Of a stretch of 26,425 nt of DNA, positions 1,437-25,992 are shown one piece after another (within the stretch, counting starts at the first letter, position 1; each line of letters begins with the position of its first letter). The position numbers and the translations under genes are program-made. Under the pieces are notes generated by a model. It was not told where the DNA came from. It made no database searches and saw only the letters and a program-made list of their open reading frames with translations. The stretch comes from Candidatus Zixiibacteriota bacterium (GTDB lineage: Bacteria > Zixibacteria > MSB-5A5 > GN15 > FEB-12), in the NCBI GenBank assembly GCA_038067995.1, contig JBBTMW010000136.1, positions 1 to 26,425 of the forward strand, given 5' to 3'.

Positions 1437-1640
1437 GGGTGGCCCACCTTTCAGGGCTTGTTGAAAAAGTGGTGAAGATGCAAAATTGGCGAAGCGTGTC
1501 ACGGAACGTCGCATCGAGCGGAGACGAGATGCGTTGTCTTTCAAACGATTAGAGAAGTCGATGGAGGAAGAGTGTCCCGACTCCGCTCGACACGACACAC
1601 AAAGAGGGGTAATTCAACAAGCCCTTCAGGTGGGTTCCCG
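1437..1640 (+). repeat. REP family A copy split by a mini-element
   Basis: gggtggcccacct-ttca [insert] ttca-ggtgggttcccg. Removing the insert and one ttca restores the REP at 17822-17850. Confidence 0.92.
1454..1624. mobile_element. MITE-like element 1 (171 bp) in the REP-A loop
   Basis: TIR gggcttgttgaaaaa (1454-1468) / taattcaacaagccc (1610-1624), 13/15 match with 12 bp perfect. TTCA duplicated at 1450-1453 and 1625-1628. No internal transposase. Confidence 0.88.
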
Positions 1641-1652
1641 CGTAGAAGATTT

Positions 1653-1665
1653 TGTCGGGTTTCTC
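1653..1665 (-). repeat. Half copy of family B repeat
   Basis: tgtcgggtttctc is identical to 4516-4528; the other arm is missing. Confidence 0.4.
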
Positions 1666-1672
1666 TCCCGCC

Positions 1673-3907
1673 TCACCCCACCACCTTCAGCTTCGCGAAG
1701 CGGGCCATGATCTTCTTGGTGCCTATCCCCGTGAAGCTGATTTCAAGCTTCAGTGAATCCCCCACCCCTTCAGTTGTGACAATTCTGCCCCGTCCAAATG
1801 TCGGATGGTGCACCACCCGCCCGGGATGAAATGTCTCATTCTCTTCATACACATAATGCACCCCTGCCTCTTGCGGTCGTTGCGAGGGGAGAGGCTGTTG
1901 CATTGGTCGCGCCTGAGTTGCCGACGGCAAACTGTACATCCCCTGCCGTCTGAAATCGATCTTCTCAATCAGTTCCTGCGGCGTCTCCCGAATGAACCGC
2001 GACGGTATTGAGTCGACCGCCCCAAAGCGATGGCGCATCACAGCGCAGGTGAGATACAGCTTTTTTCTCGCCCGAGTCGCACCGACATAAAAGAGACGCC
2101 GTTCTTCTTCAATCTGCTTCGGCTCAGCGATGCTTCGCTCGAATGGAAAAATGCCCTCTTCGAGTCCGACCAGAAAAACCGTGTCGTACTCCAACCCCTT
2201 GGCGCTGTGGATGGTCATCAGGGTTATCTTGTTTTCAATCTCTTTGTAGATATCGAGATCGGTAAAGAGGGAAATGTCGGCCAGATATTGCGCGAGAGTG
2301 GAAGACGGATTGTGGGTGCTGTACTCGGAGATACCCTCGATAAATGTCTCGATATTCTCAATTTTCGTCTGGCCGGTGACCTTGTCCTCGCTCAATAATT
2401 CCTGCACCAGCCCCAGTTCCTCGACTATATCCTGAACGAGCACGGCAACCGGCTTGGTGTCGGCTGTCTCGCGATGTTTCTCTATCAGCCCGGCAAAGGC
2501 CATCAGCGCTTTAGCCTTGGCACCGAGGGGTGCATGCTGATTCGCCATCCCTGCCGTTTCGAGGAGACTGCTCCCCGATGCCCGCGCGATGGTGGTCAGC
2601 TCTTCAATCGTCCTGTCGCCGATACCGCGCTTGGGAAAATTGACAACCCGATTAAATGAGATATCGTCTTTCGGATTCACAATCAGCTTGAGATAGGCAA
2701 GAAGATCTTTGATCTCCTTACGTTGATAAAATGCCAATCCACCGACTATTTGATAGGGGATATTGCGACGGCGCAGTTGTTCTTCAAAGGCGCGCGACTG
2801 GGCATTGGTGCGATAAAGAATCACCATATCCGATAGCCGTGAGGTTTCCCCACGTCGCACGACAATATCAACGACATGTCTCGCCTCATCTTCGGCAGAA
2901 TCGGTAATCAAAAGCGAAAGAGGGTCCCCGCCCTTGAGGGCTGTCCAAAGGGTCTTTCCTTTGCGCGATTCGTTGTTGGCAATGACTCCCGAGGCCGCCG
3001 CCAGAATCGTATGGGTCGAGCGGTAATTCTGTTCGAGCTTGATGATCTTGGCTCCGGGATAATCGCGCTCAAAATCAAGAATGTTCCGAATGTCGGCGCC
3101 ACGCCATCCATAGATCGACTGGTCTTCATCCCCAACGACACAGATGTTGTTATGAGAATCGAGTAGATATTTCAGAAGTAGATACTGCACATGGTTGGTG
3201 TCCTGATATTCATCGACAAGGAGATAACGAAACCGTTCGCGCCAGTTCTTCGCGACTTCGGGATTGTCGCGCAGGAGCAGAACCGAGTTGACCAGCAGGT
3301 CATCGAAATCCATAGCGTCGCATTCCCGCAATCGCTTTTCATAGAGGGCATAGATTTTGGCGGTGGCATTCTCAAAGTAGCCTCCGGCCTGCGACAAATA
3401 GGTGGTTGCACCCACCAGCTTATTCTTAAGGTCGGAGATTTTTCGCATCTGGGCGCGCGGTGCGAACTGTGTCCCCGCGAGGCCAAGTTCCTTGATGCTG
3501 TTCTTGATTACCGTCTCTGAATCACCGGCGTCGAAAACCGTGAACTGGTTGTCATAGCCGATACGCACCGCCTCGCGGCGCAGAAGTCGTGAGCAGAAGG
3601 AATGAAAAGTCGAGACCTGAAGCCCCCCAATCTCTCCACCCATCAGTTCGGCGACCCGGTCACGCATCTCACCGGCGGCCTTGTTGGTGAATGTCACCGC
3701 CAGCAGTTGATAGGGAGTGGCCTTCCGTTCGGTCAGCAAATAGGCCAGACGGCGTGTCAGCACACGGGTTTTCCCTGACCCTGCCCCCGCTATCACCAGA
3801 AGAGGGCCATCGGTGGTGATCACAGCCGCGCGTTGTTCGGGATTGAGGTCGTCGAGTAATCGATTCATCTGCTCTGAATATACCGGATTGTGCTCAGCGC
3901 GAAACAA
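1673..3907 (-). CDS. pcrA: ATP-dependent DNA helicase PcrA/UvrD
   Basis: LNPEQ..AV, Walker A IAGAGSGKT, VTFTNKAA, LVDEYQDTN, VGDEDQSIYGWRGA, LEQNYRS, TIHSAKGLEY, EERRLFYVGATRA, and C-terminal HPTFGRG domain. Start is TTG 3907 or ATG 3868. Confidence 0.97.
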   Translation of the reverse strand: MFRAEHNPVYSEQMNRLLDDLNPEQRAAVITTDGPLLVIAGAGSGKTRVLTRRLAYLLTERKATPYQLLAVTFTNKAAGEMRDRVAELMGGEIGGLQVSTFHSFCSRLLRREAVRIGYDNQFTVFDAGDSETVIKNSIKELGLAGTQFAPRAQMRKISDLKNKLVGATTYLSQAGGYFENATAKIYALYEKRLRECDAMDFDDLLVNSVLLLRDNPEVAKNWRERFRYLLVDEYQDTNHVQYLLLKYLLDSHNNICVVGDEDQSIYGWRGADIRNILDFERDYPGAKIIKLEQNYRSTHTILAAASGVIANNESRKGKTLWTALKGGDPLSLLITDSAEDEARHVVDIVVRRGETSRLSDMVILYRTNAQSRAFEEQLRRRNIPYQIVGGLAFYQRKEIKDLLAYLKLIVNPKDDISFNRVVNFPKRGIGDRTIEELTTIARASGSSLLETAGMANQHAPLGAKAKALMAFAGLIEKHRETADTKPVAVLVQDIVEELGLVQELLSEDKVTGQTKIENIETFIEGISEYSTHNPSSTLAQYLADISLFTDLDIYKEIENKITLMTIHSAKGLEYDTVFLVGLEEGIFPFERSIAEPKQIEEERRLFYVGATRARKKLYLTCAVMRHRFGAVDSIPSRFIRETPQELIEKIDFRRQGMYSLPSATQARPMQQPLPSQRPQEAGVHYVYEENETFHPGRVVHHPTFGRGRIVTTEGVGDSLKLEISFTGIGTKKIMARFAKLKVVG

Positions 3908-3956
3908 TCACGAGCGCGATTGTCTCCTCTTTTCATTTGACGCAATTGACCGCCAC

Positions 3957-3987
3957 AAAAAAAGCCCCGCCATTCGGCGAGGCTTTC
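3957..3987 (-). terminator. Rho-independent terminator after rpmA
   Basis: Minus strand gcctcgcc-gaat-ggcggggc followed by T7. Confidence 0.85.
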
Positions 3988-4009
3988 TTCAAATTCATTT
4001 GAATTCAGC

Positions 4010-4261
4010 TTAAGGATAGACTGAAACCTTCTTGCCGTCCTTGCCGACACGCTCAAATTTGACGACACCGGTGATCTTGGCAAAAAGGGTATTGTCACGG
4101 CCGATGCCGACATTGTACCCCGGTTTTATGGGGGTGCCGACCTGGCGAACGATTATGGAGCCAGCCAGAATCGCTTGTCCGCCAAACACTTTCGTGCCAC
4201 GACGTTGTGAGTTTGAGTCGCGGCCGTTCTTTGATGATCCTACGCCTTTTTTATGGGCCAT
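4010..4261 (-). CDS. rpmA: 50S ribosomal protein L27 (bL27)
   Basis: [24 protein letters not shown]...[10 protein letters not shown]...G.GRDNTLFA signature. Confidence 0.98.
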
Positions 4262-4334
4262 ACTATTCCTCTATCGACAATTATGTTCGGTTAATACAGG
4301 CCGACGACCCGAGAGAGGCCTTCGGCAGTTTGCT

Positions 4335-4363
4335 ATTATAATGCCCAACCGGCATTTTGGCAA
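4335..4363 (-). promoter_or_regulatory. Sigma70-type promoter for rpmA
   Basis: Minus strand TTGCCA (4363-4358), 17 nt, TATAAT (4340-4335). Confidence 0.75.
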
Positions 4364-4409
4364 GAGGGGGAATTGTTTCAAAAGTCGCCCTGAACATCCT
4401 GGCTCATGT

Positions 4410-4445
4410 GTGCGCGGTCCCGCTTCAAGGCGGGATCTCGTCTGC
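4410..4445 (+). repeat. Palindromic repeat, family D
   Basis: Homologous to 442-478; hairpin tcccgc-ttcaag-gcggga. Confidence 0.65.
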
Positions 4446-4459
4446 CCGGTCCCACCCAT

Positions 4460-4509
4460 GTCATTCCCGACAAGTCCCCGCGTGAGCGGGGACGCAGAGC
4501 GGGAATCTA
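4460..4509 (+). repeat. Branched TGTC-type repeat (family C') with inner GNRA hairpin
   Basis: gtcattcccga-caagt-ccccgc-GTGA-gcgggg-acgca-gagcgggaatcta; same architecture as the reverse complement of 14346-14398. Confidence 0.7.
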
Positions 4510-4515
4510 TCTAAG

Positions 4516-4568
4516 TGTCGGGTTTCTCGTTCGGCATAGCCTCACTCGGAACACCGACCTACGAAGAA
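4516..4568 (-). repeat. GTAG-type REP-like hairpin, family B
   Basis: Reverse complement ttcttc-gtaggtcggtgttccga...gagaaacccgaca matches 338-387 and 497-547. Confidence 0.8.
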
Positions 4569-4682
4569 AATCTTGACATGTGTGAGAAAGTCATAAAAAC
4601 CCTAATTGACTTTTCATTCCCCGGCTTATAATCGTATGCTTATGACATTATTGCGACAGTGAGCACCAAGGAAAGGCAATCC

Positions 4683-5372
4683 ATGAAAACCATCGGACTC
4701 ATCGGCGGAATGACCTGGGTGTCGACCGCGGAGTATTACTCCATTATTAATCGAATCGTTAATCAGCGTTTGGGGGGAGTGCATTCGGCAAGAATACAGA
4801 TGCGATCCCTCGATTTTGGGGAAATCAAAGACTGCATCGACCGCAACGATTGGCGAGCAATTGCCGAAATAATGGTTTCCGCCGCAAAGTCTCTTGAACT
4901 TTCTGGGGCCGATTGCATTGTCCTGTGCGCCAATACCGCGCACAAAGTGTCACATGAAGTGCGCAAGGCTTCGAGATTACCGTTGATTCACATCGCCGAA
5001 GTAACCGCGCAGGCTCTCACGAACGCCGGTATCACCAAGGCTGGCCTGCTCGGCACAAACTTCACGATGATGGATTCATTTTTCAGGGATGCCCTCGCAA
5101 AGGAGGGGATCGAGGCGTTGGTCCCGGGGGACGATGATCGCGCATTTATTCATAATTCGATTTTTGATGAATTGGGGAAAGAGATATTCTCACCATCGAC
5201 AAAATCCCGCTATCTCAATATCATCGACAGCCTCGCGCAACAGGGGGCCGAAGGGGTCATTCTGGCATGCACCGAGATTCCGTTACTTATCAAACCCAAA
5301 GACTGCACTCTTCCGCTTTTCAACACCACCGAAATCCACTCCCAAGCGGCGGTGGATTTCGCGCTGGAATAG
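4683..5372 (+). CDS. Aspartate/glutamate racemase family protein (YgeA/RacX-like)
   Basis: MKTIGLIGGMTW start after an AAGGAAAGG RBS; two catalytic Cys motifs, LCANTAH and LACTEIP. Confidence 0.93.
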   Translation: MKTIGLIGGMTWVSTAEYYSIINRIVNQRLGGVHSARIQMRSLDFGEIKDCIDRNDWRAIAEIMVSAAKSLELSGADCIVLCANTAHKVSHEVRKASRLPLIHIAEVTAQALTNAGITKAGLLGTNFTMMDSFFRDALAKEGIEALVPGDDDRAFIHNSIFDELGKEIFSPSTKSRYLNIIDSLAQQGAEGVILACTEIPLLIKPKDCTLPLFNTTEIHSQAAVDFALE

Positions 5373-5385
5373 CTGGCAAAATTAG

Positions 5386-5412
5386 GTAGGGTGGAATCTA
5401 ATGGGTTCCGCC
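5386..5412 (+). repeat. Degenerate GTAG-tagged hairpin
   Basis: gtag-ggtggaa-tctaatggg-ttccgcc just after the racemase stop; single copy in the window. Confidence 0.35.
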
Positions 5413-5439
5413 TCTTGTTACTTCCGGCCCGAGCCCCAC

Positions 5440-5468
5440 TTGACGCCTTGATCGACGCACTCTATTAT
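5440..5468 (+). promoter_or_regulatory. Sigma70-type promoter for the propeller lipoprotein
   Basis: TTGACG, 17 nt, TATTAT. Confidence 0.7.
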
Positions 5469-5536
5469 TAGACGAATAAGAACACTTTCAGCGAGCGCCA
5501 CCTGATTCGGCATGCGTTCGAAATAAGAAGAATTAT

Positions 5537-6652
5537 ATGCATTCATCGAGAGTTTCACTTCTTCAAGCCGCCAGCATCGCGATCATTGTGAGCATATTCA
5601 TTGTCAGTTGTTCAGAGGATGACAAATCAGTCGCCCCGACCCACCAATATGCTTGGGCATCCCTCGGTTCGGGAATGAATGGCAGGGTCAGCTACTGCAC
5701 CGTCTATGGAAATAAGTTAATAGCAGGGGGTGATTTCACCAACGCAGGTGGAGTCGGAGCATCCTCCATTGCGGCTTGGGGAGGATCGTCTTGGGCTCCA
5801 CTCGGTGCAGGTATTTGGGGTGCACTGTTTAATATCACTCCTTATGATAGCAAACTTATCGCAGGCGGAGTATTCGACAGCGCTGGAGTAGTAGCGGCAA
5901 ATAGTATTGCAGCGTGGGATGGTTCGTCGTGGTTTCCTCTTGGAACGGGCGTAGATGCTGTGGGTCCGTGGGCCGGGGTACTTGCTCAGACCGTTTACGA
6001 CAACAAGCTCATTGTAGGTGGAGATTTCGATAGCGCTGGTGGATTAAGTGCGAATCGAATTGCGGCTTGGGATGGCTTAGCTTGGTCGCTTATCAGTACT
6101 GGAATGAGCCATAACGTCTCGGCCCTTACAGTTTATGGCAACAAGCTTATAGCGGGTGGTTCTTTCGACAGCGCCGGTGGAGTAGAAGCGCATTCTATCG
6201 CAGCTTGGGACGGATTGTCTTGGGAGCCTCTTGGTGCAGGAGTAGCTGGAAAGTATGGCTGGGTATTTGCTCTTACCGTTTATGATAACAAGTTGATTGT
6301 AGGGGGAATATTCGATAGCGCCGGTGGTGTGGCCGCGAACAATATTGCGGCATGGGACGGTTCGTCGTGGGCCGCGCTGGGTGCTGGAATAACGGGAACT
6401 TTCAGCGATGTTAATGCCCTCACTACTTTTAACAATAGGCTGGTTGTCGGAGGATACTTTCTCACCGCTGGCGGAGTCAATGCGAGTCACATAGCTACTT
6501 GGGACGGCTCATCGTGGGCTCCTCTCGGTATGGGAATGAATGCCGAGGTACGGACTCTTACAGTCTATGGTAATAGGCTGATTGCCGGGGGAGATTTCGA
6601 AACCGCTGGTGGGGTAAATGTAAACTATATTGCGGCCTGGGGTCTCCAATAG
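5537..6652 (+). CDS. Predicted lipoprotein with seven ~46-51 aa repeats (likely 7-bladed beta-propeller)
   Basis: Lipobox-like IVSC after a hydrophobic stretch; 7 repeats of W..LG.G....V..LTVY.NKLI.GG.F..AGG..A..IAAWDG. Confidence 0.85.
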   Translation: MHSSRVSLLQAASIAIIVSIFIVSCSEDDKSVAPTHQYAWASLGSGMNGRVSYCTVYGNKLIAGGDFTNAGGVGASSIAAWGGSSWAPLGAGIWGALFNITPYDSKLIAGGVFDSAGVVAANSIAAWDGSSWFPLGTGVDAVGPWAGVLAQTVYDNKLIVGGDFDSAGGLSANRIAAWDGLAWSLISTGMSHNVSALTVYGNKLIAGGSFDSAGGVEAHSIAAWDGLSWEPLGAGVAGKYGWVFALTVYDNKLIVGGIFDSAGGVAANNIAAWDGSSWAALGAGITGTFSDVNALTTFNNRLVVGGYFLTAGGVNASHIATWDGSSWAPLGMGMNAEVRTLTVYGNRLIAGGDFETAGGVNVNYIAAWGLQ

Positions 6653-6700
6653 AGCTGAATCGCAGTTCAACTTCCAACTATTTCTAGTCAGCCACTTCAC

Positions 6701-6730
6701 AAAAAAAGCCCCGCATACACGGGGCTTTCT
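6701..6730 (-). terminator. Rho-independent terminator after clpC (between convergent genes)
   Basis: Minus strand gccccg-tgtatg-cggggc followed by T7. Confidence 0.85.
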
Positions 6731-6752
6731 CAATTCAGAAATAAGCAGGGTT

Positions 6753-9212
6753 CTACTTGACCAGCTGTTTCCCTTTGTCGGGGGTCTGCTGGCGGGCGTT
6801 AAACGTGAATGTCAACTGTTCTTCGCTTGCACCCACCACAAGATCAAGATCACCGGCATACTGGCCGCGGAGCACTTCCTCGGCAAGCGGGTCTTCAAGA
6901 TACTTCTGGAGGGCGCGCTTGAGCGGGCGAGCGCCGTACTGCGGCTCCCATCCCTTCTCGGCAAGAAAATCCTTGGCCTCGACGCTCAATTGGAAGCTGA
7001 TCCCCTTGTCGGCAAGGCGCTTGGCAATATCAACGACGAGAATGTCGATGATCTGCTTGATGTGCGATCTCTCAAGGGAATGGAAAATAACGGTGTCGTC
7101 GATACGGTTGATAAGCTCGGGATTGAAGAGTTTCTTCAGTTCCTCTTTTATCCGCTTCTTCATGGTGTCATACGACTGCTCAACGGCGGTAGCATCGAAC
7201 CCGACCGTCTTCCCTTCGCCAATTTGGCGGGTGCCGACATTCGAGGTCATGATTACTATAGTGTTGCGGAAATCAACTTTCCGTCCGAATGAATCGGTGA
7301 GGGAACCGTCGTCCATCAGCTGAAGAAGAATATTGAAGACATCCGGGTGTGCCTTTTCGATTTCTTCAAGAAGGACCACGCTGTAAGGTTTGCGACGGAC
7401 TTTTTCGGTCAGCTGGCCGCCCTCTTCAAACCCGACATAGCCGGGAGGGGCGCCGATAAGACGCGAGACTGCGAACTTTTCCATATATTCCGACATATCA
7501 ATGCGAATGAGCGACTCAGTGTCGTCAAAGAGGAATGTCGCGAGGGCCCGAGCAAGTTCGGTTTTGCCAACGCCAGTCGGGCCGAGGAACATGAATGTGC
7601 CAATCGGACGGCGCGGGTCGCCTAGTCCGGCGCGAGCACGACGGATGGCTTTCGAAATCGTGGTTATTGCCTCAGTCTGACCGACAATGACCCGGCTCAG
7701 TTCCTCTTCCATGCGAAGCAGTCGCCGTGATTCATTTTCCTCAAGACGGAACAGCGGAATTCCAGTCATCTTAGCGAGAACGGCGGCGACGTCATCAGCG
7801 GTGAGAGTCACGCGCTCTTTGTCGCGCTGTTCTGTCCATTTGCGTTGAAGCTCGGCGAGGTTCTCCTTGCGGGCCTTGATCTCATCGCGAAGTTGTGCGG
7901 CAGTCTCGAAGGCCTGATTTTTGACCGACTGCTCTTTCTTCGTCTGCAGTTCAGTGATCTCGGTCTCGATAGTTCCGAACTCCTGCGGGCGGGTGTATGT
8001 CGAGAGATGTGCCCGCGAACCGGCCTCGTCGATGAGGTCGATGGCCTTATCCGGTTGGAACTTGTTCGAGACATAGCGATTCGACAGCTTGACGGCCGCC
8101 TCAATCGCCTGATCGGTTATAATCAGCTTGTGGTGCTCTTCGTAGCGCTGGCGAAGTCCTTTGAGAATGAGAATCGTATCTTCTTCAGTGGGGGGGTCGA
8201 CCATGACAATCTGGAACCGTCGGTCAAGGGCTCCATCCTTCTCAATATATTTGCGGTATTCGTTGAGCGTCGTCGCTCCGATGCACCGCAGTTCGCCGCG
8301 AGCGAGAGAGGGCTTGAAAATATTCGATGCATCCAACGACCCTTCAGCCCCGCCGGCGCCGACGATGGTGTGGATTTCATCAATGAAGATGATAACGTCA
8401 TTGCTGTTGATGATTTCCTGCATAACTGCTTTGAGACGTTCTTCAAACTGTCCGCGGTATTTGGTTCCTGCCACCAGCGAGGCCATGTCGAGCGTCACCA
8501 CGCGCTTATTTTCGAGGGTCTGAGGGACGCGGTTTTCTACAATGCGCTGGGCAAGCCCCTCGGCGATGGCGGTCTTGCCGACGCCCGGCTCGCCAATGAG
8601 GACAGGATTGTTTTTCTTACGGCGCGAAAGAATCTGCGCCACACGCTCGATCTCGTCTTCGCGGCCGATGATCGGATCAAGCTTGCCGCGACGAGCCAGT
8701 TCGGTCAGATCGCGACCGAAATGATCGAGAGCGGGAGTTTTTGATTTTTTTCGTTTTTTCTTGAACGATGACGGCCGCCCTGAGGAGATATTTTTCAATT
8801 CCTCGTAAGCTTCCTTGTAATCAATTTCGTATGTCGACAGCACCTGTGCCGCAACTCCTTCTTCATCACGAAGAAGCGCCAGCAGGATGTGCTCGGTGTC
8901 GATGTCTTTGGATTTGAGAGCGCGTGCCTCCTGGCCGGAAACTTCGAGAGTCTTCTTGGCGCGAGCGGTCAGGGGAAGCTGACCCATCGTCATCGTGCCG
9001 CCGGATGGTTGCACGACCTCTTCAATGGATGCTTTCAAATCAGAAAGCTCCAAGCCGAGGTTGTTGATAACATCAACGGCGCGGCCTTCGCCCAGCCGGA
9101 TCAATCCCAACAGGAGATGCTCAGTACCGATATAGTCATGGCGCAGACGAGCGGCCTCATCACGGGCAAACTCGATTGCCTTGCGCGCGCTTTCTGTAAA
9201 CATCTCATTCAT
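6753..9212 (-). CDS. clpC: ATP-dependent Clp protease ATP-binding subunit ClpC
   Basis: Clp N-terminal repeats; NBD1 GEPGVGKT and IFIDEIHT; UVR-like middle domain ([11 protein letters not shown]); NBD2 GPTGVGKT; GARPL; follows mcsA-mcsB. Confidence 0.97.
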
Positions 9213-9284
9213 GATTCGTCTTCCTCTCTAACGTTGTCGATCCAATATACGTTCAATCGCGCCGTTCATGCAAGAACTCTGCAG

Positions 9285-10355: not shown

Positions 10356-10372
10356 GTCTGCTCCTGTTGTTC

Positions 10373-13033: not shown

Positions 13034-13067
13034 TCTGTCATTCCCGCGAAGGCGGGAATCCAGTCCT
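13034..13067 (+). repeat. Family C palindromic repeat
   Basis: Identical to 396-429. Confidence 0.9.
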
Positions 13068-13134
13068 GTTCTTTAGGGCAATTTTGAACAATTTGTCGCG
13101 GGTTAAAATAACACCGCCGCTTCGTTACGCATGT

Positions 13135-16625: not shown

Positions 16626-16663
16626 AAATCTCTCTCTCATAGCTCTCTACCCAACCTCGACAC

Positions 16664-16698: not shown

Positions 16699-16739
16699 GA
16701 GTATTGCCGGTCGCATAATGACTTGTGTATACTTGCGAC

Positions 16740-17711: not shown

Positions 17712-17737
17712 GAGGGGGGCGTCGACAGTCGAGCGTT

Positions 17738-17821
17738 TTAGGGGCAGGCTGGCGGCGGTGGTCCGCCTTTGAACAGGTAAGTTATCAATTGGCTAATATC
17801 AACGATGTTCATGTCGCCGAA
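17738..17821 (-). pseudogene. Dockerin-like C-terminal tail of the interrupted NHL gene
   Basis: Minus strand reads FGDMNIVDISQLITYLFKGGPPPPACP* (TAA 17740-17738); in frame with the 19570 ORF once the element is removed. Confidence 0.82.
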
Positions 17822-17851
17822 GGGTGGCCCACCTTTCAGGTGGGTTCCCGT
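17822..17851 (+). repeat. REP family A, left inverted repeat of the RAYT element
   Basis: gggtgg-cccacct-ttc-aggtggg-ttcccgt. Confidence 0.95.
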
Positions 17852-17868
17852 GAAAAATCCAGCTACAC

Positions 17869-17897
17869 TTGAGTTATGAATGTTGTCTTAGTATCAT
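17869..17897 (+). promoter_or_regulatory. Internal sigma70-type promoter, probably giving leaderless RAYT mRNA
   Basis: TTGAGT, 17 nt, TATCAT; ATG lies 7 nt downstream (17904) with no Shine-Dalgarno sequence. Confidence 0.55.
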
Positions 17898-17903
17898 GCA
17901 CCC

Positions 17904-18440
17904 ATGCCGCTCTTGAAGCATTTTGACAATCTCAACACCGGTCGTTTTGTCACATTCACTTGCTATCGACGGCAAAAGCTACTGACTGCTCCATCTGTGA
18001 TCTGTGTGTTTCTTCATGCCTTGGATGATGCTCGTAAGAAGTATCATTTCCGCTTGTACGCTTACGTGATCATGCCTGAGCACGTTCATTTAGTCATGCA
18101 TCCGCTCGACGGAACTCTGCTCGGACCTCTGATTGGTGAGATCAAATCAAAGTCGGGTGCAAAAATTGTTGCTGATTCTCTGATCCAATTGCCTGATAAT
18201 TGTAGTGTTGAGAGAAGTGGCCAGACCAGATGGGTGTTTTGGCAACCGCGATGTTACGACCACAATTGCCGGACACCGGAGACCGCGCTTGAAAAGATTA
18301 ATTATTGTCACAATAATCCGGTGAAGCGAGGTTTGGTAGCTGAACCTGGCGACTGGCGCTGGTCGAGTTACAACTGGTATATTGGAAAACGCGATGTGCC
18401 GATTGAGATTGATGAGTTTGAATGGATTCGCCGAGAGTGA
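17904..18440 (+). CDS. REP-associated tyrosine transposase (RAYT/TnpA-REP, Y1 HUH family)
   Basis: FVTFTCY, HUH motif YVIMPEHVHL, FWQPRCYDHNCR, catalytic-Tyr region INYCHNNPVKRGLV..P.DWRWSSY; flanked by inverted REPs. Confidence 0.95.
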   Translation: MPLLKHFDNLNTGRFVTFTCYRRQKLLTAPSVICVFLHALDDARKKYHFRLYAYVIMPEHVHLVMHPLDGTLLGPLIGEIKSKSGAKIVADSLIQLPDNCSVERSGQTRWVFWQPRCYDHNCRTPETALEKINYCHNNPVKRGLVAEPGDWRWSSYNWYIGKRDVPIEIDEFEWIRRE

Positions 18441-18450
18441 AGACGGATTG

Positions 18451-18480
18451 ACGGGAACCCACCTGAAAGGTGGGCCACCC
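18451..18480 (-). repeat. REP family A, right inverted repeat of the RAYT element
   Basis: acgggaa-cccacct-gaa-aggtggg-ccaccc. Confidence 0.95.
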
Positions 18481-19570
18481 CGCCGAACAAATTGGCGGCC
18501 CCGAGATATCCGACATGCCCCCCGATGGCGTTCGGAAGCATGAACTGGTTTTCTCCGGTCCCGGTGCTCCCAAAGGTGCAGAGCGGAAGCAGGTCATATG
18601 TATACTTGGTGACTTTACCGGCGTCGCGGTCAAGCGCCCAAACCTGGCCGAATGCATCAACTTCAAGATCAATTGGGCCTGATCCGCATGGCACCTCCCT
18701 CATCCAAGATATAGTTTCGCCATTGGTAGTCTTGATCAACCAGATAATTCTGTTATTACCTGGGTCGGCTATGTAAAAGTGGTCATTGTTCGCGTATGGG
18801 GCCGACACTATGTAGGGGCTCCGGCCTGATGCAATGGCCGTGATTCTGCAGAATTGGCCCGGGATTCCCGTGCACCCATATGCGCCAAACGTGCTCTTAA
18901 GCTGACCGTTATATGTAAGTATGCGTTTTATCTGATAGGCCGCGCCACCCGGCGCATTCACCACCCACAGATAATTGTCTGCATACTGGCCTTCTCCAAT
19001 ATCCCAAAAGCTTGCGTTGTCGTTGAGATCCAAATCAACAGGTCTATCCAGCCCGAGTCCGGTGATCGCCTGATCACAAATCATGAATTGGTTCGCAGTG
19101 CGCCAATCGTAGCGAAATCTAACAATGCGATTATTCCGTGTATCAGCAACATAGCCGTAGTAATAGTAGCTGTAACCGGAATCGTTGCAAGGAGCCAAGA
19201 CATCGATACTCTGCGGCCACTTGAACTGGCAGGAACCCGTGCCGAACGAGCTGTATGCCCGGATCCAATCGTCTAATGCCTCTATGTACACTATGCGATT
19301 CCATCCTTTATCCAGATCAAATGACACAGCGCTCCAAAGTTCGCGCTGTGGTGTCATGATGTAGCTCGCTGAGGCGGAAACGGGATTGTTGAATAGGTCA
19401 ACACTCCAGGCCGAATTTGCGACTTGTCTCGTCAATTTCCAAATCAGAGGATTCTCAAATACCGGGCGTCTGATGAGGGCATATGCGCTTGGGCTCTGCG
19501 CCTGAGATGCTTCATATCCCAGACAGAGACTAAGCGCAAAGAAAGCGATAACAGAGCATTTCTTGAGCAT
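18481..19570 (-). pseudogene. Secreted NHL-repeat (beta-propeller) protein interrupted by the RAYT element
   Basis: Signal peptide; NHL-like YVADTRNNRIV, FYIADPGNNRII, PIDLEVD..GQVWALD, FG..G.G..QF..P. After codon 363 the ORF reads into the REP and antisense RAYT. Confidence 0.8.
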
Positions 19571-19573
19571 AGT

Positions 19574-20389
19574 TCATTTCCCCAGCAATTTCAGCATTTG
19601 CTCCGCGTGTCTTGCCGCGCGCGTCCCCTTATATTTTACCATCACACTGTCTAAATATTCCCTTTTCAATTCGGGGCTTAGTTCTTGAGTAAGTGCTTTC
19701 AACCTCGTCTGAGAATTTCCCGAGTTGGGAAATCGTTGCAAGAATTCCTCATACTTCAGAACGTATAACGCTGCGATTTCAGCAAATACGCTCTTGGGAT
19801 AAACTTCGAACAATCTCTGTAGAGAAGCATTGGGGGAAGAATTGAGAGATTTTGATCTGAGAGAAATGTTATAGTCCAATAGCAATCGCTCGGCCTCTCT
19901 TTCCTCTCCAGATAATTCGACAACTCTAAAACCGATTCTGTCTGAATTACTATCTGCGTATGACGCCGAAACAAAGTAGTATCCCGGAGAGAGCGAACCG
20001 AAGCCGAGCGTTTCCAAGTACTTGACTGCAAACAGCTCATTGAGCTCAAATGAGTCATAGAATGTCTCATCGGGGGTCATCAAAAATCCCTCTTTAGGAA
20101 CAAGCTCCCATTCAGGACCAGAATAGGGAATTGGGTTTCCGACACTATCGCTAACCTCAATAGTAAACCATAACCCATGGCAGGGTGGAAACAAACCCCA
20201 CGACCTGAGAGTATCACCACTTATGTTTGTGAGAACGACGTCAAGCCATATGGGCTCCCGCGACACAAATTGATCCTTTTCGAGATCTATTTTGACTTTC
20301 CATTGTTTGCTAAACGAATCCCCGACCGAAACACTTTGAAGTGGAAATAGTAACACAACGGTTACAAGAATAAAGATGTAGAGTCTCAT
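19574..20389 (-). CDS. Secreted hypothetical protein (Ig-like N-part, helical C-part)
   Basis: Signal peptide MRLYIFILVTVVLLFPL; beta-rich EPIWLDVVLTN...PGYYFVSASY; helical C-terminus; stop lies 4 nt before the NHL gene start. Confidence 0.7.
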   Translation of the reverse strand: MRLYIFILVTVVLLFPLQSVSVGDSFSKQWKVKIDLEKDQFVSREPIWLDVVLTNISGDTLRSWGLFPPCHGLWFTIEVSDSVGNPIPYSGPEWELVPKEGFLMTPDETFYDSFELNELFAVKYLETLGFGSLSPGYYFVSASYADSNSDRIGFRVVELSGEEREAERLLLDYNISLRSKSLNSSPNASLQRLFEVYPKSVFAEIAALYVLKYEEFLQRFPNSGNSQTRLKALTQELSPELKREYLDSVMVKYKGTRAARHAEQMLKLLGK

Positions 20390-20415
20390 AATTGGTTACC
20401 CATCATAGAGTGCTT

Positions 20416-21168
20416 TTATTTGGTCTGTTTAAGTCGCTCACAGCAAATAGTACAAAAATGCGGATTTGCGGTGAGATCTGTCGAACTGCACAGGGACGTT
20501 ATTCCCACACCCATTACGCATCCGGGGTCGTTGTGCAGAAGAGAATCCTGAACCCAACCAGAATTTGAAGAATTGAGCTTGCAGAGGTGCTGGAGTGCCG
20601 CTCTGTTATGACCGAGTTCATGAATGACCGTCTTTTTAAGCGTCGCGGGCTTATTGCTACCACCATTAGTCTGAATTTCGTCGTTGAAAATAGCTGTACA
20701 TCGAATATGATCGCCGCCCTCCTGCTCAGTCCAACTCATGGTATATGCAAAAGTAGCAAAATAGCCCTCACCGGGTTTGTTATAGGCGTTGGCCATTCCG
20801 ATAAGGTAGTGGTCATAATAGAAATCAACCGGAGGGCCAAGTGATGCTTGAGCATGGTCCAACACATAATTTAGCAATCCGTTTTGATTAAAATCTGGAT
20901 ATACAACAGTAGTAATTACTTCATCATACACTATTTTCAGGGATGTTTTGCACGAGGCGAAGGCGGGAAGCGGATATTCTTCTCCGGCTGTTTCTCCCGT
21001 GAAAACGTTACAACCCGTCATATAATCATATTCCACTGCAAAAACCGTGAACCCGTCTGGCGTGACTTCCTGCGGATTACTGCAACCTACCGTCCATCGA
21101 ATAAGCACAATAATCAGGATCTGGGGCAATGCCGCCTTCAGCTTCGGCGTCCATCCTGCGCCTCTCAT
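20416..21168 (-). CDS. Putative zinc metallopeptidase lipoprotein (metzincin/archaemetzincin-like)
   Basis: Lipobox-like TVGC; VIHELGH...H, CVM Met-turn-like motif, distal FCTIC cysteines; ATGA overlap with the upstream gene. Confidence 0.72.
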   Translation of the reverse strand: MRGAGWTPKLKAALPQILIIVLIRWTVGCSNPQEVTPDGFTVFAVEYDYMTGCNVFTGETAGEEYPLPAFASCKTSLKIVYDEVITTVVYPDFNQNGLLNYVLDHAQASLGPPVDFYYDHYLIGMANAYNKPGEGYFATFAYTMSWTEQEGGDHIRCTAIFNDEIQTNGGSNKPATLKKTVIHELGHNRAALQHLCKLNSSNSGWVQDSLLHNDPGCVMGVGITSLCSSTDLTANPHFCTICCERLKQTK

Positions 21169-21836
21169 TTCCCCTCCGCAACGCCATCGGTTGGTTTCAC
21201 GGTCTTATACACCTGGCTTTCTATGAATGACACGAGGTTATCAAATCGTGCAAGGCGCCAACTCTTCCGGCTGTTCTCTGGATCGTGGGCAGGGGCGCCG
21301 CCCGGCCACCGTTGATTGCCATCCGACGGGGCGCCAACCACTGGGACAGCCGTGACCGAAACAAACACTAATCTCTCCGGCGATTTGCGCCCCGGGCCGT
21401 GATGCACGCCGTCAGCGGGCGCCCCCCAAAGCACCAATTCGCAGTCGACAACAGCCGTGTCGCCGGTAATTGCAATCTTTGGATCGAGTATATCGAAATC
21501 CCAGAAGTCAGAATTGCGCTGGGGGCTGTCGGGACGAGCAAAGGCAGGTTTGGCCAGATGCATCGTCCTATTGGCCGACCCGCTGAAAAGTGTCTGTAAT
21601 CTCTGAGTAACTTGGGCGCTTGCCGTCGCCTTTTGGCCATTTACCGAAACATCAGGCGCCAGCGCCAGATTGATCTTCATGGTGTCTTCTTCCTGGATGC
21701 CGGTTCGCAACAGATCAACGCCCAGCTGAACCCATTGCTGGTCGGAGACTTTTCTGAAATGTTGAGCTTGGGTAGAGAGAGGAGTGGAGATGAACGAAAT
21801 CAGCCCTATCGCAATTGCCCAGATTTGTTTTCGCAT
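21165..21836 (-). CDS. Secreted protein, possible NTF2/SnoaL-like fold
   Basis: Likely start ATG 21836 after GAGGG; signal peptide MRKQIWAIAIGLISF...AQA; NTF2-like pattern ..LAPDV...KIAITGDTAVVDCEL...LVF...WRL. Confidence 0.65.
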   Translation of the reverse strand: MRKQIWAIAIGLISFISTPLSTQAQHFRKVSDQQWVQLGVDLLRTGIQEEDTMKINLALAPDVSVNGQKATASAQVTQRLQTLFSGSANRTMHLAKPAFARPDSPQRNSDFWDFDILDPKIAITGDTAVVDCELVLWGAPADGVHHGPGRKSPERLVFVSVTAVPVVGAPSDGNQRWPGGAPAHDPENSRKSWRLARFDNLVSFIESQVYKTVKPTDGVAEGK

Positions 21837-21924
21837 AACGTTACCCTCAACGTATGAGTTCCAATACCAAAGACGATTCAAAGCGCAGAAAGTGCAATGA
21901 TGTCAGACAGAACCCATGTAAACC

Positions 21925-21938
21925 TATATATATATATA
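21925..21938. repeat. (TA)7 microsatellite next to a TTGACA box
   Basis: tatatatatatata; minus-strand TTGACA at 21947-21942 lies 3 nt away, in a divergent intergenic region. Confidence 0.8.
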
Positions 21939-22086
21939 CTTTGTCAAGGGACAAGTTGTAGTTGTGTCATATTTTTTTGTCGGCAGTCATAGCCTCATCA
22001 CAGGTTTGAATCAAATAGGAATTTTCGGGGATTCCCGAAGCGCCACATGGGCATTCGTACTTCTCTTCCCGTCCCCAATTATCCGC

Positions 22087-22115
22087 TTGGCGGGAAAGGC
22101 CTTGCGCTATATATT
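22087..22115 (+). promoter_or_regulatory. Possible sigma70 promoter for the PPIase operon
   Basis: TTGGCG, 17 nt, TATATT. Confidence 0.4.
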
Positions 22116-22193
22116 TGCTGCTTGTCTGCGGCAGGCTGAATCTGTCCGCGCCGAAACTGGTACAAGAAACAGATGATGGAGGTCACTCGACAT

Positions 22194-23921
22194 ATGCGCA
22201 CGACACTCGCACGCCTTCTCGCCCTGAGCGCGATACTGGCCATTTTTGCCCTCGGCTGTGGTAGCAAAAACTGGGGAGACACCGTTGCCACCGTCGGCGG
22301 CTACGACATTACGACCGATGAGTTTCTCGAATACATGGGAACCCCGCCGGTCGATTTCAATTCGGCTCAGGAAGAGTTCGACAAGCGCCGCGAGATTCTC
22401 GATACGATGATCGTTACCCGCCTGCTGATTCAGTCCGCCTACGAAAAAGGGATAGACAAGGATCCGGAGATTTCCCGTATAGTGGAAGCCAATAAAGAAA
22501 AATTCCTCCTCGACAACCTCTACTTCCGCAATATCCGCGAGAAGACGCACGCCACCGAAACCGAAATCAAGGCATTCTGGGAGAATCTCGCCGATCGTTT
22601 ACGGGTCTGCCATATTCTCGTCAAGAGTGAAGACTCGGCCAACATGATTCTCGACAAACTCAGAGCCGGTGAAAACTTCGAGGAGGTTGCTTACACCCAT
22701 TCGGCCGATCCAAGCGCCAAAAAGAATCGTGGCGACCTCGGCTATATCCTCTGGGGGGCGTTTGTCGACGAGTTTCAGGATGTGGCCTTCAAGATGCAGG
22801 CTGGCGAGGTCTCGCCGCCGGTCAAGTCAGCCTATGGATGGCACATTATCAAAGTCATCGACCGCCTTCCCAATGATTCCCGCCAGCCGTTTGAAACGAT
22901 GAAATCAGCAATCAAATCCCAGCTTGAAAACCGCAAGAGCTATCGCGCGGCTGAGATTTTCATGAAGGAGATCAAGGCTAAATATCCTATCACTGTCGAC
23001 ACCGTTAGCTGTCAGTACTTGCTAAAAAAGCGGGAGACACTCTATCCGCCGGAACTGTTGGCGAGTTTGCCGCGCAATGATTTCGACCTGGCTCAACTTG
23101 ATAGAAACGAAAAAGAACTGGTACTCGCCACATGGGATGGCGGGCAGATCACTGTCCAGCAATATCTGGATAAAATCAAATCATCGCCGCGTGAGATACG
23201 CCCCGATTTTGATAATTTCGACAGCCTGCGAACCGTCATTTTCGAGCTTAAAAAGGGAGACCTCTTGGCCATCGAAGCCATTCGCTCGGGTATGGACAAT
23301 GACCCGCGATATGTGAAAAAGATCAGTCTCTTCAAAGAATACAATATGGCCGAGGTGATGAAATCCGATTCGATGCCGACTCCGCCGGATCCTGACGATG
23401 CCACTGTACGCATGTACTACGACGCCCATCCCGAGGAGTTCTCCAGTGCCGCAAAAGTGCAAGTTTACGAGATTCTTTTGAGCGATGAACCCCGCGCCCG
23501 CCAGCTCAAAAAGAGTATCAAATCGCTGGCCGAGTTCAAGGAAATGGCCATGGATCTCACCGAACGCCCCGGCAAACGAGAAGCTCGCGGAGAACTCGGA
23601 TATATCGAGAAAGAGTTTTTCCCCGATTTATTTGATGAAGCCTGGCGCACTTCAATCGGCGCCATTGGTGGACCCATCCAGACGATGGGACGCTATTCCA
23701 TCATCTATGTGGTTGACAAAATAGAGGCTTCACAGAAAGACTACCTTTCGGTCAAGCCTCAAATAGTCGGGCGACTCGTATCCGAACAAAAAACGGCAAA
23801 TCTTCAGCAGTGGATTGCTGACCGAAAGAACGCTGTGTCGATTGATGTTGACGACGATGCGCTCTGGGCGACGGTAGACAAGGAAAAGTATGCTTCAGCT
23901 GAATCTGGCAAGACGAATTAA
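22194..23921 (+). CDS. Parvulin-type peptidyl-prolyl isomerase lipoprotein (PrsA/PpiD-like, two PPIase domains)
   Basis: GGAGG RBS before ATG 22194; lipobox ALGC; parvulin motifs VCHILVK...GENFEEVA..HS.D....RGDLG...GWHIIKV, plus a second degenerate domain. Confidence 0.88.
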   Translation: MRTTLARLLALSAILAIFALGCGSKNWGDTVATVGGYDITTDEFLEYMGTPPVDFNSAQEEFDKRREILDTMIVTRLLIQSAYEKGIDKDPEISRIVEANKEKFLLDNLYFRNIREKTHATETEIKAFWENLADRLRVCHILVKSEDSANMILDKLRAGENFEEVAYTHSADPSAKKNRGDLGYILWGAFVDEFQDVAFKMQAGEVSPPVKSAYGWHIIKVIDRLPNDSRQPFETMKSAIKSQLENRKSYRAAEIFMKEIKAKYPITVDTVSCQYLLKKRETLYPPELLASLPRNDFDLAQLDRNEKELVLATWDGGQITVQQYLDKIKSSPREIRPDFDNFDSLRTVIFELKKGDLLAIEAIRSGMDNDPRYVKKISLFKEYNMAEVMKSDSMPTPPDPDDATVRMYYDAHPEEFSSAAKVQVYEILLSDEPRARQLKKSIKSLAEFKEMAMDLTERPGKREARGELGYIEKEFFPDLFDEAWRTSIGAIGGPIQTMGRYSIIYVVDKIEASQKDYLSVKPQIVGRLVSEQKTANLQQWIADRKNAVSIDVDDDALWATVDKEKYASAESGKTN

Positions 23922-25236
23922 GACCAACCTTTTCAATAAGTCGGCGATTATCGCCGCCTTTCTGCTCGTTTTAGTCGCACCCCATGCTCGTGCCGAGCGG
24001 GAGATAGTCGACGAGATCATAGCCGTTGTCGGCGACACGGTCATTCTTGGCTCGGAAGTGGCAAACCAGATACGGATGTATTTGCTCCAGGGCAACGTTC
24101 AGCTCAAGAGCGAGGAAGAGGCACGCAAGCTCCAGAACGACATTCTTGAGCAGATGATTAACGACCACCTCCTTCTTTCTGCCGCTAAAGAAGACACCTC
24201 CATTGTCATTCGCGACGAAGAGGTTGACGCCGCCCTCGATGACCACATCGCCCGAATCAGCAAGAACTTTCCATCCATGGAAGACTTCGAACAGGCGTTG
24301 ACCGCCGAGGGACTGACCCTTCGTGACCTGAAAAAACAGTATCGCGACGACGCCCGAAGCACCCTTCTCAAACAGCGTTTCATTCAGAGAAAACTCTACA
24401 ATGTGTCGGTGTCGCGCCATGAGGTGGAGTCATTTTTCGCCCGCTTCAAGGATTCAATTCCCTCTCAGCCTGAGGCAAGCAAGCTGGCGCATATTCTACT
24501 TCGCGTCATGCCGAGCAAAGGGGTTGAAGATTCCGTTCGCGATTTCGCAGTGTCGCTCAGGCAACGAATTCTCGAAGGGGCCGATTTTGCAACCATCTCC
24601 TCCCGATACTCAAGCATAGGCGCTGGCGCCAACGGCGGCGACCTTGGATATGTCTCGCGCGAAGACGTTGTCCCCGAATTTGCCCGAGCCGCTTTCAATC
24701 TTAAACCGGGGGAAATGTCAGGCGTGATTCGCACTCAGTTCGGCTATCATATCATTAAGTGCGAGGGGAAGGAAGAACCCAGGCTCCGTCTGCGCCATGT
24801 CCTTCTTGCTGTCACGCCGACCTCAGAGGATACGGCGCGGCTGAATCATCTTGCCGACTCCCTGGTGGGCATAATCGGTCAGGGGGCGGATTTCGCCGAA
24901 CTTGCAAAGGCTTTTTCTGAGGATGCCGACTCCCGCGCCAATGGCGGCGAACTGGGGTGGTTTACCCCCGAAAACCTTCCGCATGATCTCGTCGACGACA
25001 TTGCCGGTTGGAAAACTGCGGGAGAGATTCGCGGTCCGGTGGCGTCATCGCAGGGGATGCACATTCTCAAACTTCTTGACTACACTCCTGCAAAAACTCT
25101 CGACCTGGTAGCCGATTTCGACCGCATCAAAGATATGGCCCGCGAAGAAAAGACCGGCCGGTTGGTCGACTCATGGATTAAAGGCCTGCGCGAAAAGGCG
25201 TATATAGAGGTGCACCTGCCTCAACATGCGAATTGA
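23890..25236 (+). CDS. surA: SurA-like periplasmic chaperone/PPIase
   Basis: SurA N-domain (IVDEIIAVVGDTVIL.SEV); two parvulin domains (AHILL...GADFATI...GGDLGY...FGYHIIK; RHVLL...GADFAELA...GGELGW...GMHILK). Confidence 0.85.
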   Translation: MLQLNLARRIKTNLFNKSAIIAAFLLVLVAPHARAEREIVDEIIAVVGDTVILGSEVANQIRMYLLQGNVQLKSEEEARKLQNDILEQMINDHLLLSAAKEDTSIVIRDEEVDAALDDHIARISKNFPSMEDFEQALTAEGLTLRDLKKQYRDDARSTLLKQRFIQRKLYNVSVSRHEVESFFARFKDSIPSQPEASKLAHILLRVMPSKGVEDSVRDFAVSLRQRILEGADFATISSRYSSIGAGANGGDLGYVSREDVVPEFARAAFNLKPGEMSGVIRTQFGYHIIKCEGKEEPRLRLRHVLLAVTPTSEDTARLNHLADSLVGIIGQGADFAELAKAFSEDADSRANGGELGWFTPENLPHDLVDDIAGWKTAGEIRGPVASSQGMHILKLLDYTPAKTLDLVADFDRIKDMAREEKTGRLVDSWIKGLREKAYIEVHLPQHAN

Positions 25237-25480
25237 CGACTTCCTATCGACAGTCGGACTAATCAAGCGACGTACCGAAGCCAAAGACCTCGGCGATGCC
25301 GGGATGATTGAGGTAAACGGACGGCGTGTAAAGCCCTCCTATATTGTAAAGGTGCGGGATATCATCCGCCTCAAAGGGGCGCATCCATTTGCGGTGGAAG
25401 TTCTCGACGTCCCCACTCGTTCGGTCTCCAAAGATATCCGTGAACGGTACTTTCGTTCCGTCACTGCCCCCGGGGCGTAA
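25226..25480 (+). CDS. S4-domain RNA-binding protein, YabO/RqcP-like
   Basis: MRIDDFL..VGLIKRRTEAK....G.IEVNGR.VKPS..VKV.DII matches the YabO/HslR-type S4 pattern; short form without the Hsp15 C-terminal helix. Confidence 0.8.
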   Translation: MRIDDFLSTVGLIKRRTEAKDLGDAGMIEVNGRRVKPSYIVKVRDIIRLKGAHPFAVEVLDVPTRSVSKDIRERYFRSVTAPGA

Positions 25481-25531
25481 GGCGGAGTGAATGGCTGTTC
25501 CAATTTAAATGGGCGGGTGTCCCACCTTTCA

Positions 25532-25701
25532 GGGCTTGTTGAAAAACTCCCAATGTGTGTCGTCTCGAGCGAAGTCGAGAGACGGTTACTCTGGGAAGAA
25601 TACCAACTTGATGTTAGACAACGCATCTCGTCTCCGCTCGATGCGACACGCCAGAAGGCGATTCCCCCATTTTATATGTCTGCCACTTTTTCAACTAGCC
25701 C
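25532..25701. mobile_element. MITE-like element 2 (170 bp), homolog of element 1 in opposite orientation
   Basis: TIR gggcttgttgaaaaa / tttttcaactagccc (14/15); flanks ttca/ttta; 25616-25647 is the exact reverse complement of 1508-1539. Confidence 0.85.
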
Positions 25702-25747
25702 TTTAGGTAGGATTGACACTGGGATGCATCACTGGAACCCACCTGAA

Positions 25748-25909
25748 GGGCTTGTTGAAAAAGTGTGTTTGAGCTAAATGCTCATTTCTGTCATTCCCGC
25801 GCAGGCGGGAATCCATCTTGTCTTCCAAAGAGTTAGGACTGGACTCCCGCCTTCGCGGGAGTGACATTTGTGAGGGTGCGGCGGAGATTGAAGGTTTTTC
25901 AACAAGCCC
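25748..25909. mobile_element. MITE-like element 3 (162 bp) with different cargo
   Basis: Perfect 15-bp TIR gggcttgttgaaaaa / tttttcaacaagccc; TGAA duplicated at 25744-25747 and 25910-25913; interior holds a family C doublet. Confidence 0.9.
25789..25866. repeat. Inverted doublet of family C repeats inside MITE 3
   Basis: tgtcattcccgcgcaggcgggaatcca ... tggactcccgccttcgcgggagtgaca. The right arm shows compensatory att/aat to act/agt changes relative to 396-429. Confidence 0.85.
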
Positions 25910-25992
25910 TGAAAGGTGGGCCACCCCGTCCACGTCAAAAAATGGACATCAATAATTACTGTTGTCAACAGAATTTAAGATGGGCCGTGCAT

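Follow-up and report, generated by a model that had tools for sequence, protein, structure and literature searches.

The insertion sequences (ISs) IS1397 of E. coli and ISKpn1 of Klebsiella, both members of the IS3 family, reportedly insert into the loop of repetitive extragenic palindromic (REP) sequences. REP-targeting ISs have been established in the IS3, IS110, IS4, IS256 and IS5 families, and the IS1182 family is not among these five (PMC1525189). Within the IS1182 family, the staphylococcal elements IS1272 and TnSha1 insert in either orientation into hairpins that share no common sequence, and some further members of the family are described as targeting palindromes (PMC4923244; PMC5678879). 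In the model of PMC5678879, variant c shows a duplication of the loop upon insertion, an outcome that is predicted there but undocumented. A further member of the family, the experimentally captured ISPse1 from Paracoccus seriniphilus, is listed in Table 2 of PMC3281130 with a size of 1653 bp, 16-bp inverted repeats and a 4-bp direct repeat, an entry that reports no targeting of palindromes. A gene for a REP-associated tyrosine transposase (RAYT) that is flanked by inverted REPs is termed a REPtron (PMC2817692; PMC3333891). The general phenomenon is thus already known: hairpin targeting is established for IS1182 elements and REP targeting for five other families. Here, we describe a stretch of 26,425 nucleotides from a Candidatus Zixiibacteriota bacterium (the window), in which three short elements without genes split copies of one REP family, REP-A. 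These elements are very probably internally deleted MITEs (miniature transposable elements with inverted repeats) of an IS1182-family IS, placed by a 4-bp stagger at the tip of palindromes. The window is the entire contig C136 of a metagenome-assembled genome (MAG) of 1.675 Mb in 167 contigs that is 57% complete, and DNA of this organism has been detected in groundwater and aquifer metagenomes.

Three elements split REP-A hairpins at one position

Six copies of the 15-nt sequence GGGCTTGTTGAAAAA with no more than two mismatches are present in the window, compared to a chance expectation of 0.09, and none of 100 shuffled sequences reached this number. The six sites form three inverted pairs and, as terminal inverted repeats (TIRs), delimit three elements (MITEs 1, 2 and 3; Table 1), whose lengths of 171, 170 and 162 bp are the same as those given in an initial annotation made from the window's letters alone. 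Each element sits in a REP-A copy that is split at the same position in the loop, as that annotation had stated. Intact REP-A reads CCCACC-TTTCA-GGTGGG plus outer arms. The left REP-A half in front of MITE 1 is 100% complementary to the right half behind MITE 3 and agrees with the intact copy upstream of a RAYT gene. When the flanks of MITE 1 or MITE 3 are joined and one copy of TTCA/TGAA is removed, intact REP-A is rebuilt exactly, which bears out the proposed 4-bp duplication. At MITE 2, TTCA on the left is opposed by TTTA on the right, where the REP half is decayed. An alternative that had been considered equally valid, a 16-bp TIR starting with A and a 2-bp TC/GA duplication, is disfavoured. 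Irrespective of which MITE end is adjacent, the extra A/T stays on the REP side that bears AGGTGGG and is therefore part of the target, and sites outside REPs show clean 4-bp duplications.

MITEs 1 and 2 have their cargo in common (79% complementary across 87 nt) and lie in opposite orientations relative to the REP. This cargo, type I, consists of two GCATCGAGCG/GTCTCGAC-type hairpins, whereas that of MITE 3, type II, consists of two TCCCGCG-type hairpins and is unlike the other. Comparison of the flanks and cargos thus agrees with the initial description of the three elements.

The RAYT gene scores above the cut-off of its model and is flanked by an inverted REP-A pair, and REP-A can therefore be regarded as a genuine REP. 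The target has all features of a REP in a REPtron: it is a short, GC-rich hairpin, it occurs in many copies, and it forms an inverted pair around the RAYT gene (17822-18484). In single-stranded form, intact REP-A closes a 3-nt loop with a stem of 7-8 bp, CCCACCT/AGGTGGG, at a free energy of -9.2 to -10 kcal/mol (z -2.6 to -3.1). The assembly contains 33-35 intact REP-A-like copies, some of them with compensatory changes in the stem. Both copies next to the RAYT gene are intact and free of MITEs, as originally noted. The REPtron is here the host of insertions and not the inserted element, and RAYT, a Y1/HUH enzyme, leaves neither TIRs nor a target duplication.

A full-length IS1182-family element with the same ends

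The initial annotation had postulated a non-autonomous TIR family mobilized by an unseen DDE transposase. While the first part of this proposal holds, the transposase is no longer unseen: a search for a full-length IS with the same TIRs, suggested there along with a family assignment by hidden Markov models, led to a 1417-bp element on contig C130 (C130:15584-17000; L001:785-2201). Its ends, GGGCTTGTTGA(T/A)(T/A)AA, match each other at 13 of 15 positions, CAAG is duplicated on both sides, and a single open reading frame (ORF) encodes a transposase of 444 aa, which is full length when compared with relatives of 440-446 aa. The protein reaches 373.1 bits with the NCBIfam model NF033551 transpos_IS1182 (cut-off 270), whereas all IS5, IS4 and ISNCY models remain below their cut-offs (19-109 bits vs cut-offs of 110-275 for the IS5 models), and it contains the Pfam domains DUF772, DDE_Tnp_1 and DDE_Tnp_1_6. 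Elements of the IS1182 family are about 1.3-2 kb in size, and the C130 element conforms to the family in its model match, its single ORF with TIRs, its size and its short target duplication. As far as the published table entry describes ISPse1, the two elements share the family and the 4-bp length of the duplication and differ in size (1653 vs 1417 bp), a likeness by description only.

A resemblance of the TIRs to IS903-type ends had initially been taken as a hint to the family. An affiliation with the IS903 group of the IS5 family does not hold, since only the first bases of the ends are alike, the IS5 models stay below cut-off, and the duplication is 4 bp long and not 9 bp, the length given for IS903-group elements in Table 2 of PMC3281130.

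The first 17 nt of one MITE end, the A-end, are identical to the right end of the C130 IS, and the opposite B-end shares AACCC with the left end of the IS. The MITEs and the IS also have the same asymmetric sub-terminal bases, with AAAGT following one end and AACCC the other. Mobilization of the MITEs in trans by the C130 transposase is suggested by these shared ends. The IS itself occupies the 4-nt loop of a REP-B-like variant with the stems CCCACAG/CTG(G/T)GGG, of which six intact copies are present.

Beyond C130, the assembly retains the transposase only as a C-terminal fragment on contig C3. This fragment belongs to the remnant of a second, diverged IS1182 element (C3:18878-19198), the C-terminal 96 aa of which are 63.5% identical and which retains a perfect TIR end at C3:19198. 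About 60 bp upstream of the full-length IS lies the B-end of a truncated MITE, which has type II cargo (L001:638-722; C130:15437-15521), and with a further REP-like hairpin between the two, this region forms a small nest of mobile elements.

Genome-wide census and independence of the insertions

A profile built from 38 MITE copies was used for an nhmmer search of the assembly and revealed about 119 MITE loci, among which 58 are close to full length. The elements of the window conform to MITEs in being short (161-199 bp among the copies) and gene-less, in carrying parental ends and a 4-bp duplication, and in the high copy number of the family. Two cargo types as well as type I/II chimeras are present. 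A REP-A half is found on at least one side of about 11 MITE loci, and the junction is always CCACCTTTCA or CCACCTGAA directly followed by the TIR, i.e., the cut position is identical. The MITEs in REP-A occur in both orientations, belong to different subfamilies and have outer flanks that are unique for each locus, from which we conclude, in line with the initial annotation, that the insertions into REP-A were independent and do not stem from one composite. MITE 3 has a 96.8% identical copy on contig C72, which is flanked by a CTAA duplication of its own and lies in a palindrome of unrelated sequence, GACCTAC. The presence of near-identical MITEs in REP-A and in GACCTAC indicates that a single transposition machinery serves REP and non-REP palindromes.

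Several MITEs combine a left flank from one hairpin family with a right flank from another or from none, and have no duplication (C6:1055, C50:3689, C76:6914, C24:2102 and C78:4447), which suggests recombination between MITE copies, that is, genome rearrangements mediated by the family. Contigs C6, C74, C92, C105, C108, C114, C131 and C163 start or end inside a MITE. These breaks imply that the copy number is underestimated and that the family is a main cause of assembly breaks. A pair of MITEs on contigs C6 and C153 that are 100% identical was considered as proof of recent movement and discarded, as the C6 copy is located at a contig end and may reflect assembly collapse.

Target choice

Both ends were located for 41 MITE copies, of which 40 were scored, and the site counts given here are approximate owing to mismatched flanks. 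A duplication of 4 bp was present in 12 of the 40 copies, one of 5 bp in three and one of 3 bp in two, without any base consensus. The flanks of 16 copies (40%) can pair with each other (at least seven complementary matches near the insertion point), vs 2.6% of 5000 random sites. The stems around the inserted copies comprise REP-A, REP-B, CCCGCCC, CCACCG(C), CCCCCTTCC, CCCCGC and GACCTAC, and some sites with clean 4-bp duplications are wholly non-palindromic. About 80% of the MITE copies lie outside REP-A, which collects about one fifth of the insertions because it is the commonest favored palindrome in this genome. Most copies at sites other than REPs had been named in the initial annotation as the result that would speak against recognition of this hairpin. 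For REP-A alone most copies do lie elsewhere, while for palindromes in general this is not clearly the case.

Insertion is selective nonetheless. One of the motifs CCCAC, CCACC and CCCGC lies within 15 nt of 41 of 125 TIR ends, compared to 2.9% at random, and C is abundant at positions -11 to -5 outside both ends (about 60% at -10 and -9). The REP-A arm is present in 27 perfect empty copies and abuts TIR ends in 14 cases, whereas three abundant classes of GC-rich cargo hairpins account for 104 empty copies and a single abutting TIR end. REP-type stems (CCCAC...) are thus strongly favored over cargo hairpins that are equally GC-rich. The claim that the family recognizes this hairpin consequently stands insofar as REP-A is hit far above chance and far more than other hairpins, and falls insofar as most copies reside elsewhere.

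The duplicated bases in REP-A are always TTCA, i.e., the loop TTC plus the A on its 3' side, and never the mirror TTTC, as seen at 13 ends genome-wide and for either MITE orientation. Such an asymmetry is unexpected for a symmetric cruciform target. A uniform offset of the duplication from the palindrome center was considered as a general rule and dismissed, as it applies to REP-A and to a variant on contig C117 and is opposite on contig C161.

A 38-nt palindromic repeat (TGTCATTCCCGCGAAGGCGGGAATCCAG...) occurs on its own at 396-433 and 13034-13071 of the window and also at 25787-25824 inside MITE 3. It is type II MITE cargo, and at least 42 perfect copies exist in the genome, yet MITEs have almost never inserted into it. 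Its summed contig depth reaches up to about 10,000 in groundwater metagenomes, an enormous value that points to a hairpin common to many organisms or elements in that environment.

Related insertion sequences in other genomes

The nearest genomes share about 70% DNA identity in uvrD, and the host is the sole member of its genus among the genomes compared. Zixibacteria, GN15 and MAGs at a similar distance encode transposases with 58-68% aa identity to that of C130. The UvrD proteins of Zixibacteria, GN15 and other MAGs bearing related ISs are 60-64% identical to that of the host, which hints at a Zixibacteria-like lineage, whereas a protein atlas yielded no informative taxon. The related ISs are 1409-1428 bp long and end in GGGC(T/C)TGTTGAAAAA. 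Five of the nine copies examined reside in a palindromic site with a 4-bp duplication (TAAA twice, TATG, CTTG and CTCG), and CCCAC is located within about 12 nt of at least one end in seven of the nine. A junction of the form CCACC-N3-6-TIR, with varied loops, was found in 20 of 41 genomes (the host and 40 relatives at the family or order level), while a reversed-pattern control gave none; as the search demanded CCACC, this demonstrates how widespread the junction is and not how exclusive.

Further features of the window

The coordinates of the three elements, their REP-A flanks and the intact REP-A copies are compiled in Table 1. Next to the REP-A copy at 805-838 lies a dead 3' fragment from a second RAYT copy (86.7% identity over 30 aa). 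At least four diverged RAYT paralogues with 26-40% identity are encoded elsewhere in the assembly (C100:20448-20924, C135:7656-8081, C127:2410-2868 and C142:8052-8345) and possibly correspond to different REP stem variants. At 5672-6641, the window contains six tandem copies of a 138-153-bp unit with 60-72% identity. They are located inside a plus-strand ORF of 371 aa (5537-6652), which therefore encodes a repeat-domain protein.

Table 1. REP-A copies, probable MITEs and the RAYT gene in the window
Feature	Position	Strand	Details
Intact, empty REP-A	805..838	-	Adjoins dead RAYT 3' fragment 702-803; DNA hairpin -10 kcal/mol, z -3.1
Left half of split REP-A	1436..1453	+	Outer arm, CCCACC stem and loop; TTCA 1450-1453 is duplication copy 1
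MITE 1	1454..1624	+	171 bp, cargo type I, A-end left; nhmmer E 7e-29, full profile 1-174
TTCA copy 2 (1625-1628) and right half of split REP-A (GGTGGGTTCCCG)	1625..1640	+	
Intact REP-A upstream of RAYT	17822..17853	+	Empty-site reference; -9.2 kcal/mol, 8-bp stem, 3-nt loop TTC
RAYT, 178 aa	17904..18440	+	REP_Tyr_transpos (NCBIfam) 104.8 bits, cut-off 80; Y1_Tnp 27.9 bits
Intact REP-A downstream of RAYT	18451..18484	-	Inverted relative to 17822-17853
Left half, first REP of REP doublet	25515..25531	+	TTCA 25528-25531; 97% to 1437-1468
MITE 2	25532..25701	-	170 bp, cargo type I; nhmmer E 1.6e-31 on minus strand
TTTA (decayed duplication) and right half of first REP, likewise decayed (GGTAGGATTGACAC)	25702..25719	+	
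Left flank of MITE 3	25734..25747	+	Reverse-complement-oriented REP-A half GGAACCCACC and TGAA 25744-25747
MITE 3	25748..25909	+	162 bp, cargo type II, perfect 15-nt TIRs; nhmmer E 8e-41
TGAA copy 2 and REP-A half AGGTGGGCCACCCCGTC	25910..25930	+	36 nt 100% complementary to 1433-1468

Discussion

The anatomy of the elements, i.e., TIRs, a short duplication of fixed length and a DDE transposase gene flanked by matching ends, speaks for transposition of the ordinary DDE type. In the mechanism that we propose on this basis, a transposase of the C130 type would act in trans and join the element ends to the target with a 4-bp stagger that falls on the tips of short, GC-rich palindromes. Within REP-A, this stagger would span the 3-nt loop TTC and the adjacent A, which would produce the TTCA/TGAA duplication at one exact position. 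The remaining insertions would have gone into related REP variants, other palindromes and occasionally ordinary DNA. The elements resemble IS1272 and TnSha1 in the transposase family, the choice of hairpins as targets and independent insertions in both orientations into the same hairpin. IS1272 and TnSha1, however, leave no target duplication, and part of the stem-loop is deleted or replaced, whereas the stems survive here and the loop acquires a 4-bp duplication. Furthermore, their targets are terminators, while those of the present elements mostly belong to a REP/RAYT family and the copies are mostly MITEs. With IS1397 and ISKpn1 they share the insertion into REPs and a transposase that is thought to choose the target (PMC1525189). 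They do not qualify as REP specialists of the IS3 type, as the transposase belongs to the IS1182 family, the copies are mainly MITEs, and insertions are not confined to one REP and in part not even to palindromes. Parasitism of the RAYT/REP system, as put forward in the initial annotation, describes where the elements are located and not a demonstrated dependence on RAYT.

A number of points weigh against the proposed origin and placement of the MITEs. About half of the copies are without a clean duplication, and several have flanks from two hairpins, possibly as a result of recombination between copies, which blurs the site counts. Most of the MITEs are old, with a median pairwise identity of about 77%, no transposition event has been observed, and only one intact transposase gene was found in the incomplete MAG. 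IS1272 deletes the hairpin and leaves no duplication, so that the mechanistic detail deviates from the published case. Contigs from four groundwater and aquifer sequencing runs contained no empty allele of the region 25200-26200, which is weak evidence because contigs drop rare variants; the contigs showed the filled arrangement only, and two joints reported in this region carry foreign letters and derive from paralogous MITE copies and not from empty alleles.

The enzyme may read an extruded hairpin or cruciform or else a palindromic double-stranded site. Some readout of sequence or strand is suggested by the preference for certain stems and by TTCA being invariable in REP-A, and insertions in unrelated palindromes argue for shape. 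It is possible, though we doubt it, that sequence rather than structure determines the target: the transpososome would bind two inverted CCCAC-like half-sites in double-stranded DNA and cut midway without extrusion, much as dimeric regulators recognize palindromic operators. This alternative concerns the mechanism alone and accepts the identity of the elements as IS1182-derived MITEs. It would account for the C-rich positions outside both ends, the far more frequent use of REP-A than of equally stable cargo hairpins, CCCAC near the ends of most related ISs elsewhere and the fixed TTCA. It does not sit well with clean 4-bp duplications in the unrelated stems GACCTAC, CCCCCTTCC and, in a relative, CCCGAGG, nor with duplicated bases that lack a consensus, and IS1272, the studied member of the family, targets hairpins without common primary sequence (PMC4923244; PMC5678879). 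The cargo hairpins, moreover, may be hit less often on account of their 4-nt loop, younger age or location inside MITEs.

Two further explanations would dispense with repeated insertion into REPs. The filled REPs could descend from one or a few ancestral REP-MITE composites that were spread as units through RAYT, in the manner of a REPIN-like unit, or through duplication. MITEs 2 and 3 share one REP doublet and could indeed travel together, and the chimeric flanks of some copies attest to recombination between copies. Even so, we regard such a descent as very improbable in view of both MITE orientations relative to the asymmetric REP, the presence of type I, type II and chimeric subfamilies in REP-A, the unique DNA beyond the REP at each locus, members of the same subfamily in unrelated palindromes with their own 4-bp duplications, the full-length IS in a different REP variant, and an incongruence between MITE phylogeny and the type or orientation of the flanking REP that is largely seen already. 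Alternatively, nothing was inserted and the element itself has a longer TIR whose outer part is formed by the REP halves, as might be read from inverted repeats of 36-40 nt that span REP half and TIR and from the recurrence of the same junction in other genera. This is hardly credible, since dozens of intact REP-A copies exist without a MITE, including the pair flanking the RAYT gene, the duplication between stem and TIR is direct and not inverted, and the flanks vary widely among copies.

Within the IS1182 family, target choice has been resolved for little else than IS1272, and the locus provides a natural record of it, with dozens of sites in empty and filled forms. Three aspects go beyond the published cases, namely the 4-bp loop duplication instead of a deletion of the stem-loop, the preference for REP-type stems over other stable hairpins in the same genome, and the fixed, asymmetric cut position in REP-A. 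Together, they make the question of DNA shape versus DNA sequence testable. For the organism, the MITEs amount to roughly 1% of the assembled DNA. They are found at the ends of many contigs, and recombination among them is a probable cause of rearrangements. In one REP family, a quarter of the copies are split by a foreign element and may thereby lie beyond the reach of RAYT. As a more far-reaching idea, which we put forward tentatively and consider rather unlikely, this IS1182 clade, instead of seeking hairpins in general, may have a sequence-aware, long-standing partnership with one REP/RAYT superfamily (GGTGG-CCCAC...), in which the transposase would read CCCAC-type stems and cut them asymmetrically, with TTCA and never TTTC as the outcome. 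If this were true, the partnership would span a whole order or phylum of groundwater bacteria, the MITEs would also ferry other hairpin repeats, and two unrelated systems, Y1/HUH REPs and DDE MITEs, would shape each other's distribution.

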